From an uncultured archaeon (GTDB lineage Archaea; Nanobdellota; Nanobdellia; Pacearchaeales; GW2011-AR1), in the NCBI GenBank assembly GCA_902386025.1, contig CABMHR010000001.1:35741-99740 (forward strand): 64,000 nucleotides of DNA, in the 5' to 3' direction. Each line of letters starts with the position of its first letter. Position 1 is the first letter of the stretch. Both the position numbers and the translations under genes were made by a program. A model generated the notes under the pieces. It did no database searches. It worked only from the letters and a program-made list of their open reading frames with translations, and had not been told where the DNA came from. Below are positions 33,997 through 34,568 of the stretch, one piece after another.

Positions 33997-34240
33997 ACTT
34001 CTATTTCCTATGGAAATTATTAATTAATGAATTATTTCCTTCGATAACTATTTATTTTTATTATATAAAGGATTATGACTACTAAACAAGAAAAACACCT
34101 ATATTTCAAGTGGAAATGAATATCTTCCTTTTTGAATAGCTTAAATTAATAATTGATTTATTATTTATTTTATTCTTCTTATTGTTTTTCTTTTATTATT
34201 TGCTTTTATTATTCTTTGTGAAGGAATTATCTGTTCTTTT

Positions 34241-34270
34241 TATCTTATCTTATCTTATCTTATCTTATCT
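34241..34270. repeat. pentanucleotide microsatellite (TATCT)x6
   Basis: Direct reading: six perfect tandem TATCT units. Confidence 0.95.
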
Positions 34271-34275
34271 TAATC

Positions 34276-34345
34276 ATACTATACTATACTATACTATACT
34301 ATACTATACTATACTATACTATACTATACTATACTATACTATACT
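34276..34345. repeat. pentanucleotide microsatellite (ATACT)x14
   Basis: Direct reading: 14 perfect tandem ATACT units, 70 bp. Confidence 0.95.
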
Positions 34346-34568
34346 ATACAAATTTTTATAATTAAAACAAAAACAAACAAAACTTGCAAATTCCTTTTTA
34401 AAGATTTCCACTTGCAATCAAGGAGTGAGGGGTATTATTATATCACTTAAATTAAATAAATGATACTTAATTAATAAAAATAAGTTAAAATTCAAAATTT
34501 GAATATATACTCATAAATCTATTTATTTTTACAGAAAAGTTTATAAATAATTCTTATCTCCCCTTTGT

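Follow-up and report, generated by a model that had tools for sequence, protein, structure and literature searches.

Perfect microsatellites in the presumptive unwinding interval of a probable Orc1-linked replication origin in uncultured DPANN archaea

The closest described counterparts of the locus analysed here are two archaeal origins, one human repeat system and a class of bacterial repeat loci. In Sulfolobus/Saccharolobus, oriC1 works with Orc1-1 and three origin recognition boxes (ORB1-3), of which ORB2 and ORB3 are inverted around an AT-rich unwinding element (DUE), and it carries the ucm site bound by UBP (PMC12141716). In Pyrococcus, the gene order is oriC-cdc6-dp1-dp2, and fragments with ORB1-3 of P. 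furiosus bind Cdc6/Orc1 in gel shifts in vitro (PMC1904270). In human cells, the SCA10 repeat (ATTCT)n serves as a DUE at the ATXN10 origin and at an ectopic c-myc origin, its instability being origin-dependent; in the c-myc/SCA10 system, arrays of 27-48 units act as a DUE and arrays of 8-13 units do not (PMC3711443).

The window, that is, the whole 64-kb stretch of DNA that was analysed, covers positions 35741-99740 of contig C1 (241 kb) in a four-contig genome of 558,684 bp, whose host belongs to the Pacearchaeota/Woesearchaeota-like Nanoarchaeia (DPANN). Within it, a 572-bp gap separates an orc1/cdc6 gene on the left from a PRC-barrel gene on the right (Table 1). The orc1/cdc6 product (Pfam Cdc6_C 1e-24, Cdc6_lid 2.8e-24, plus AAA domains) is encoded by a single-copy gene in the whole genome and is followed by both subunits of PolD. 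This gap is very probably the single chromosomal origin, of the oriC1 type, and its two microsatellite arrays are best read as young slippage products that are tolerated and effectively form part of the DUE. The assignment of the locus as an Orc1-dependent archaeal origin is strongly supported, since the orc1-PolD context, the ORB sequence, the conserved box layout and the corrected skew provide four independent lines of evidence. The PRC-barrel gene stands beside the origin in nearly all relatives, down to the order level, behind the element ACAGAAAAGTTTATAAA, which probably serves as its promoter. As PRC-barrel proteins are connected with archaeal cell division, this linkage to the origin may matter. 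Several small HTH genes also lie within 3 kb of the origin. An Rfam scan of positions 33800-34700 returned no credible RNA family, the sole match reaching 20 bits against a gathering score of 59.5.

Like Sulfolobus oriC1, the locus adjoins orc1 and possesses three ORBs, an inverted pair of which encloses an AT-rich unwinding region with a conserved non-ORB core. The core here (..CTATACAAAT..) resembles ucm (ATTATACAAAC) only loosely, a likeness that may be due to chance in AT-rich DNA. Unlike in Sulfolobus, the inter-ORB distance is hypervariable (~80-669 bp) among the origins of this clade and includes perfect microsatellites. With the Pyrococcus origin it shares the oriC-cdc6-DP1-DP2 order, the ORB type (ATTTC-N3-TGGAA plus a C-rich block) and an additional ORB beyond the origin proper, which lies in dp1 in Pyrococcus and in a neighbouring HTH gene in the present case. 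The Pyrococcus origin, however, is free of microsatellites and contains two AT-rich regions and numerous mini-ORBs, where only three ORBs and one outlier are found here. The SCA10 repeat is comparable in that its pentanucleotide units are AT-rich, have C confined to one strand and occupy the unwinding position of an origin. However, it is eukaryotic, pathological and at least 27 units long, in contrast to the natural arrays of 6.6 and 14.8 units with other unit sequences described here, and the parallel is one of functional analogy, not homology. Bacterial simple-sequence contingency loci are similar in their perfect short-unit arrays, with copy numbers differing between near-identical strains, but the array here lies in a replication origin, outside any gene or promoter spacer, so that any phenotype would arise via initiation rather than expression.

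Table 1. Features of the candidate origin and its neighbourhood, in positions of the 64-kb window
Feature	Position	Strand	Evidence or remark
PolD DP2 (large subunit)	27650-31111	-	after DP1
PolD DP1 (small subunit)	31108-32703	-	after orc1/cdc6
orc1/cdc6 initiator gene	32761-33996	-	likely ATG start at 33985
ORB1 (C-rich block, then dyad)	33988-34018	+	PWM 28.2 bits; kept in relatives
TTTATATAA, TATA-box-like element of the putative cdc6 promoter	34061-34069	-	within the ORB1-ORB2 spacer
ORB2 (AAGAAAAACACCTATATTTCAAGTGGAAATG)	34088-34118	+	PWM 32.7 bits; left boundary of the presumed unwinding interval
T-rich (+ strand) variable spacer with degenerate 12-13-nt repeats	34119-34239		TRF 34157-34217
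(TTATC)6.6 perfect pentanucleotide microsatellite	34240-34272		TRF, 100% matches, no indels
(ATACT)14.8 perfect pentanucleotide microsatellite	34276-34349		TRF score 148, 100% matches, no indels
Rest of conserved AT core (TATACAAATTTTTATAATT) and A-rich tract (AAAACAAAAACAAACAAAAC)	34345-34388		consensus of 121 origins
ORB3 (+ strand reads ATTTCCACTTGCAATCAAGGAGTGAGGGGT, dyad then G-string)	34403-34433	-	PWM 27.6 bits; right boundary of the presumed unwinding interval
ACAGAAAAGTTTATAAA, BRE/TATA-like putative promoter of the PRC-barrel gene	34531-34547	+	kept in nearly all relatives
PRC-barrel protein gene	34569-34829	+	right-hand neighbour of the origin; Pfam PRC 2.5e-11
ORB4, outlying	35958-35988	-	PWM 21.4 bits; inside HTH_36 gene 35674-36366

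An earlier note on this DNA had pointed to an exact 11-bp inverted pair and a nearby dyad, and had likened these elements to archaeal origin recognition boxes. The pair is present as described (CAAGTGGAAAT at 34107-34117 and its reverse complement ATTTCCACTTG at 34404-34414), and these are the only two copies of the 11-mer in the 558,684-bp genome, both at the gap and inverted. The dyad at 34003-34017 is also there and reads ATTTCC-TAT-GGAAAT, which gives two 6-nt arms around a 3-nt spacer and no perfect 15-nt palindrome. Two approaches agree on the likeness to ORBs, namely a position weight matrix (PWM), built from ORB2 and ORB3 of relatives only and scanned over both strands of the own genome, and an alignment to P. 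furiosus ORB1-3 (sequences from PMC1904270), in which ORB1-3 of the window align without gaps, with an invariant ATT.C...TGGA and the C-rich block at an equal offset. ORB2, which contains the 11-mer CAAGTGGAAAT, is the top PWM match of the genome. After ORB4, located 1.5 kb from the three-box cluster, the next-best site scores 12.6 bits against a genome-wide mean of -57.7. The PWM thus separates ORB1-3 from unrelated sites by more than 15 bits, and it finds one ORB cluster only in the genome. ORB3 is inverted relative to ORB1 and ORB2 and is conserved to the order level. ORB1, located 7-18 nt ahead of the cdc6 start, probably functions as a cdc6 autoregulatory operator as well as an origin box, its dyad at 34003 probably serving autoregulation rather than flanking the DUE. 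In relatives, the ORB1-ORB2 spacer holds a conserved block (...ATTATATAAAGGATTATAACTACT...) with a TATA-like element facing cdc6; its counterpart in the window, TTTATATAA, presumably acts in the cdc6 promoter.

Between the inverted boxes, the ORB2-ORB3 bracket (34119-34402) extends over about 285 bp at 13-20% G+C and contains both repeats announced in the earlier note, (TATCT)x6 and a perfect (ATACT)x14. TRF delimits them as (TTATC)6.6, the former being the same array read in another register, and (ATACT)14.8. The latter is the best-scoring tandem repeat of any period in the 558-kb genome, in which four repeats of period 6 or less reach a TRF score of 40, the top two being these arrays. To their right, the remainder of an AT core and an A-rich tract include many columns that are at least 90% conserved in the 121-origin consensus. 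The consensus of this conserved non-ORB core is ATATACTATATAATATAAATTTTTATAAAT, followed by the A-rich tract, at 60-80 bp from ORB3 in 121 origins, and the core may be a factor-binding site or an initiation point. The same consensus contains a TATA-like word, TTTATAAA. The left part of the interval is T-rich on the + strand in 81 of 113 origins, and the A-rich tract is present in 109 of 113. When the window is aligned to the family core, (ATACT)n prolongs the ATACTATA word of the AT core (ATATACTATATAATATAAAT) and takes the place of the left part of this core, which fits a birth of the array by slippage from the core.

Nearest-neighbour parameters identify positions 34118-34367 as the least stable 250-bp segment of the 64 kb (-252 kcal/mol, the next being -267). 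The 74-bp (ATACT)n array ranks at the 99.99th percentile of instability in the window, and the least stable stretches of 40-70 bp consist of its right end together with AAATTTTTATAATTA of the adjoining AT core. The suggestion that the DUE is built from microsatellites therefore holds on thermodynamic grounds as far as the arrays are concerned, with duplex stability lowest there, but it is too narrow: the unwinding region consists of the microsatellites plus the T-rich spacer plus the conserved AT core. By contrast, the further proposal that the tracts form unusual DNA structures finds no support with regard to a stable one, as folding predictions leave the (ATACT)n strand without structure and give the complementary (AGTAT)n strand a weak slipped hairpin only (-12.9 kcal/mol, z = -8). 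This weak hairpin could still favour slippage. Across the origins compared, the array adds to the spacer, the non-array length being equal with and without an array. No correlation, and hence no compensation, was detected between array length and remaining spacer length in the ORB2-ORB3 intervals, and the ORB2-ORB3 distances show no 10-11-bp periodicity and no helical phasing. The distance is thus unconstrained in length and helical phase, which explains why arrays can be tolerated.

Neither the uncorrected cumulative GC skew of the four contigs nor plain plots of their gene orientation reveal a clean switch or V at the site, since skew tracks the direction of the genes (r ~0.8 for GC). Bin-wise skew was therefore regressed on the net orientation of long ORFs, and the residuals were cumulated. 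On the own contig C1, with the origin at 69.7-70.3 kb, the GC residual peaks at 68-70 kb and the AT residual at 70-76 kb; this contig is partial, and the opposite extreme is uninformative there. On contig C3 of G013 (623 kb, same genus; origin at 99.4-99.9 kb), the GC maximum falls at 110 kb and the AT maximum at 100 kb, with the opposite extreme at about 410-434 kb. On contig C1 of G018 (511 kb, another genus; origin at 314.6-315.1 kb), a GC minimum falls at 290-302 kb and the AT maximum at 314-315 kb, with the opposite extreme at 48-60 kb. Orientation-corrected skew, a proxy for initiation, thus has its switch 0-6 kb from the site in all three genomes, and the two near-complete ones, G013 and G018, place the opposite extreme at a distance of half a genome, as predicted by one origin with bidirectional replication. 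The earlier note had named a skew minimum elsewhere as evidence against an origin here; after correction, the switch falls at the gap itself. The AT polarity agrees with what leading strands usually show, T exceeding A on the strand that leads away from the site. AT-residual polarity at the origin is equal in both genera examined and GC-residual polarity is opposite between them, the GC residual peaking at the origin in the window's genus and reaching its minimum there in G018. Over its 623 kb, contig C3 of G013 also has, on one strand, a net 17,443 more G than C.

The same three boxes occur upstream of cdc6 in the 29 relatives from the same genus, family and order that were compared. In these relatives, ORB1 (..CACACT...ATTTCCTATGGAAA) adjoins the cdc6 start, ORB2 (AGAAAAACACCT.TATTTC...TGGAAA) is found about 100 bp beyond it in the same orientation, and ORB3 is inverted, its + strand reading TTTCCA...GAAATCAAGGAG.GAGGGT, with the dyad followed by the G-string. 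Scans for Cdc6 proteins in metagenome contigs and species genomes yielded 160 additional loci and a set of 161 distinct upstream regions, of which 121 show the complete ORB2...ORB3 layout, most of the others being cut by contig ends. These metagenome and species-genome scans returned no contig of the same species, the best match having 92-94% Cdc6 identity on a contig that ends inside the origin/gene. The ORB1-ORB2 spacing is 97-100 bp in 69 of 75 origins; the ORB2-ORB3 distance varies over the wide range given above, with a median of 231 bp in the 121 origins.

Comparing origins in relatives, as the earlier note had recommended, reveals arrays at the matching position in many of them, with variable copy number. 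A perfect microsatellite (unit 2-6, at least 24 bp) lies between ORB2 and ORB3 in 47 of the 121 origins (39%), whereas composition-preserving shuffles of the same 121 stretches produced no such array in 20 replicates. The units comprise 29 ATT, 5 AAT and 5 ACT arrays, along with single cases of AGT, ACTT, AAAT, ATATCT and several pentamers, the window's origin being the sole case of ATACT among the 121. Perfect arrays of longer units (14-, 17-, 18- and 32-mers) also occur in relatives' origins. In 44 of the 47 origins, the array ends 58-109 bp from ORB3, just left of the conserved core. As a control, 601 kb of flanking DNA contained only 31 comparable arrays, 4 of them being mis-delimited origins and about 24 a single conserved coding (GACA)n array, and the enrichment figures are conservative because the few origins misassigned by the regular-expression delimitation of ORB2 and ORB3 were counted as control arrays. 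In G013, the best microsatellite of the genome, (TAA)20.3, is located in its origin. Judging from these sequences, the microsatellite site is a clade-wide hot spot, of which the window's pentanucleotide arrays represent a rare form.

These arrays turn over rapidly. Two strain pairs of relatives, represented by metagenome contigs, have flanks that are 100% and 99.8% identical, respectively, and differ in copy number alone, with (ATT)9 vs 6 in L111/L112 and (TAC)17 vs 18 in L126/L129. The expectation that slippage-prone tracts would vary in length among strains is therefore borne out only in two pairs of relatives and for trinucleotide arrays; by extension, the window's own arrays may be heterogeneous in copy number. 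On a Cdc6 tree of the 121 origins, the presence of long arrays requires at least 23 changes, compared with 37.4 +/- 2.7 for shuffled labels, indicating that arrays are partly inherited yet undergo frequent turnover; unit type requires at least 32 changes. In 23 of 80 species genomes, the contig stops within 600 bp on the upstream side of cdc6, compared with 1 of 80 for the same distance on the downstream side. Among 38 truncated origins, at least 9 are cut off within a perfect array, one of them being that of the closest relative, L063, with (TTATA)n, so that complete assemblies probably under-report array length. The arrays account for the frequent assembly breaks beside cdc6 and constitute a practical source of fragmentation and missing origins in MAGs, and they could be useful strain markers.

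Tandem repeats also cluster within 3 kb of the origin. ORB4 directly adjoins a coding (ACAG)10.2 array at 35986-36026 (TRF) that encodes TDRQ repeats in the HTH_36 gene. About 24 relatives have this same (GACA/ACAG)n array, perfect and in 7.8-10.5 copies, at an equal distance from the origin, and the strain pair L111/L112 has 10.5 vs 9.0 copies. A second HTH gene (36615-37211, - strand) carries, at 36885-36983, a perfect 12-nt in-frame repeat (TGTTTGAACAGC)x3 plus a 19-nt repeat, and similar 12-mers are found at the matching place in G013.

The reading favoured here assigns a role to each part of the gap. Orc1/Cdc6 would bind the three ORBs, as the box sequences suggest, and ORB1, overlapping the leader of the orc1/cdc6 gene, would probably mediate autoregulation. 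MCM loading and duplex opening would take place between ORB2 and the inverted ORB3, the interval in which melting most plausibly begins. Arrays would arise by slippage where DNA is repeatedly opened and first primed and would then be tolerated, with (ATACT)n having presumably grown from the core word named above; because their duplex is the weakest of the locus, they would in effect form part of the unwinding element. Slippage is also the most plausible origin of the arrays in the relatives. The reading is weakened by the small number of pentanucleotide units, only 13-15, when 8-13 ATTCT units failed as a DUE in the human c-myc/SCA10 system (PMC3711443), and by the GC-residual polarity that differs between the two genera.

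A different view of the same interval would regard the arrays as a selected, length-tunable unwinding element, in which gain or loss of units alters firing and generates heritable, reversible variation of initiation in the population. The fixed position of the arrays and their strand bias (29 ATT vs 5 AAT) could reflect selection rather than pure mutation pressure, perfect arrays persist in place across species with 75-90% identical Cdc6, (ATACT)n has the low stability described above, and AT-rich (ATTCT)n substitutes for a DUE in human cells in a length-dependent manner (PMC3711443). However, 61% of the complete origins have no long perfect array, in organisms that are presumably viable, and unit sequence and length vary freely without length compensation or phasing, which leaves a tunable element unlikely, if worth keeping in mind. 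Somewhat more doubtful is the bolder form of this idea, according to which the DUE of the clade holds a fast-mutating length dial, a contingency locus acting on replication, where microsatellite slippage shifts the ease of melting and the frequency of initiation. If this were true, clonal populations of host-dependent cells would show heritable, reversible variation in replication rate. The arrays might alternatively be iteron-like sites for a sequence-specific protein, such as an origin-proximal HTH or PRC-barrel protein. The small HTH genes and ORB4 within 3 kb are compatible with this, and the AT core adjoining the arrays could be a protein site comparable to ucm/UBP of Sulfolobus (PMC12141716), but the units differ among close relatives (ATT, AAT, ACT, AGT, ACTT, ATACT and 14-18-mers), which makes a conserved binding protein unlikely, and most origins have no array. 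The iteron reading, very improbable on this basis, was dropped on account of the differing units.

Two further alternatives question the origin or the arrays themselves. The gap might be a divergent promoter region only, with the Orc1 boxes as transcriptional operators and replication starting elsewhere; ORB1 does overlap the cdc6 leader, TATA-like elements are present, and Orc1 paralogues are described as able to act as regulators (PMC9738581). Against this stand the corrected skew, which switches here in all three genomes and, in the two near-complete ones, has its opposite extreme half a genome off, the occurrence of one ORB cluster and one orc1 gene in the genome, and the position of the gap as the least stable DNA of the window, and a pure promoter function is accordingly given very little credence. 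Collapsed or chimeric repeats introduced by assembly would be a trivial source of perfect arrays, and the assemblies of relatives do break frequently here. Yet differing units recur at one position in dozens of independent assemblies from many studies, the 74-bp array is shorter than ordinary reads, and both flanks run on into conserved sequence, so that an artefact is scarcely believable.

In the literature searched, no description of origin-embedded microsatellites was found for archaeal origins. What seems to be new is a positionally fixed, strand-biased and fast-turnover microsatellite site inside an archaeal unwinding interval. The origin itself follows the textbook archaeal design, which is now extended to a large uncultured DPANN clade. 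Its most sensitive part is the one spot in these tiny, repeat-poor genomes where perfect microsatellites appear, change and vanish. The clade thereby provides a natural set of origins whose main differences lie in how long the unwinding region is and which sequence it has, and such a set permits tests of what an archaeal DUE requires and of whether the chemistry of initiation drives repeat instability.
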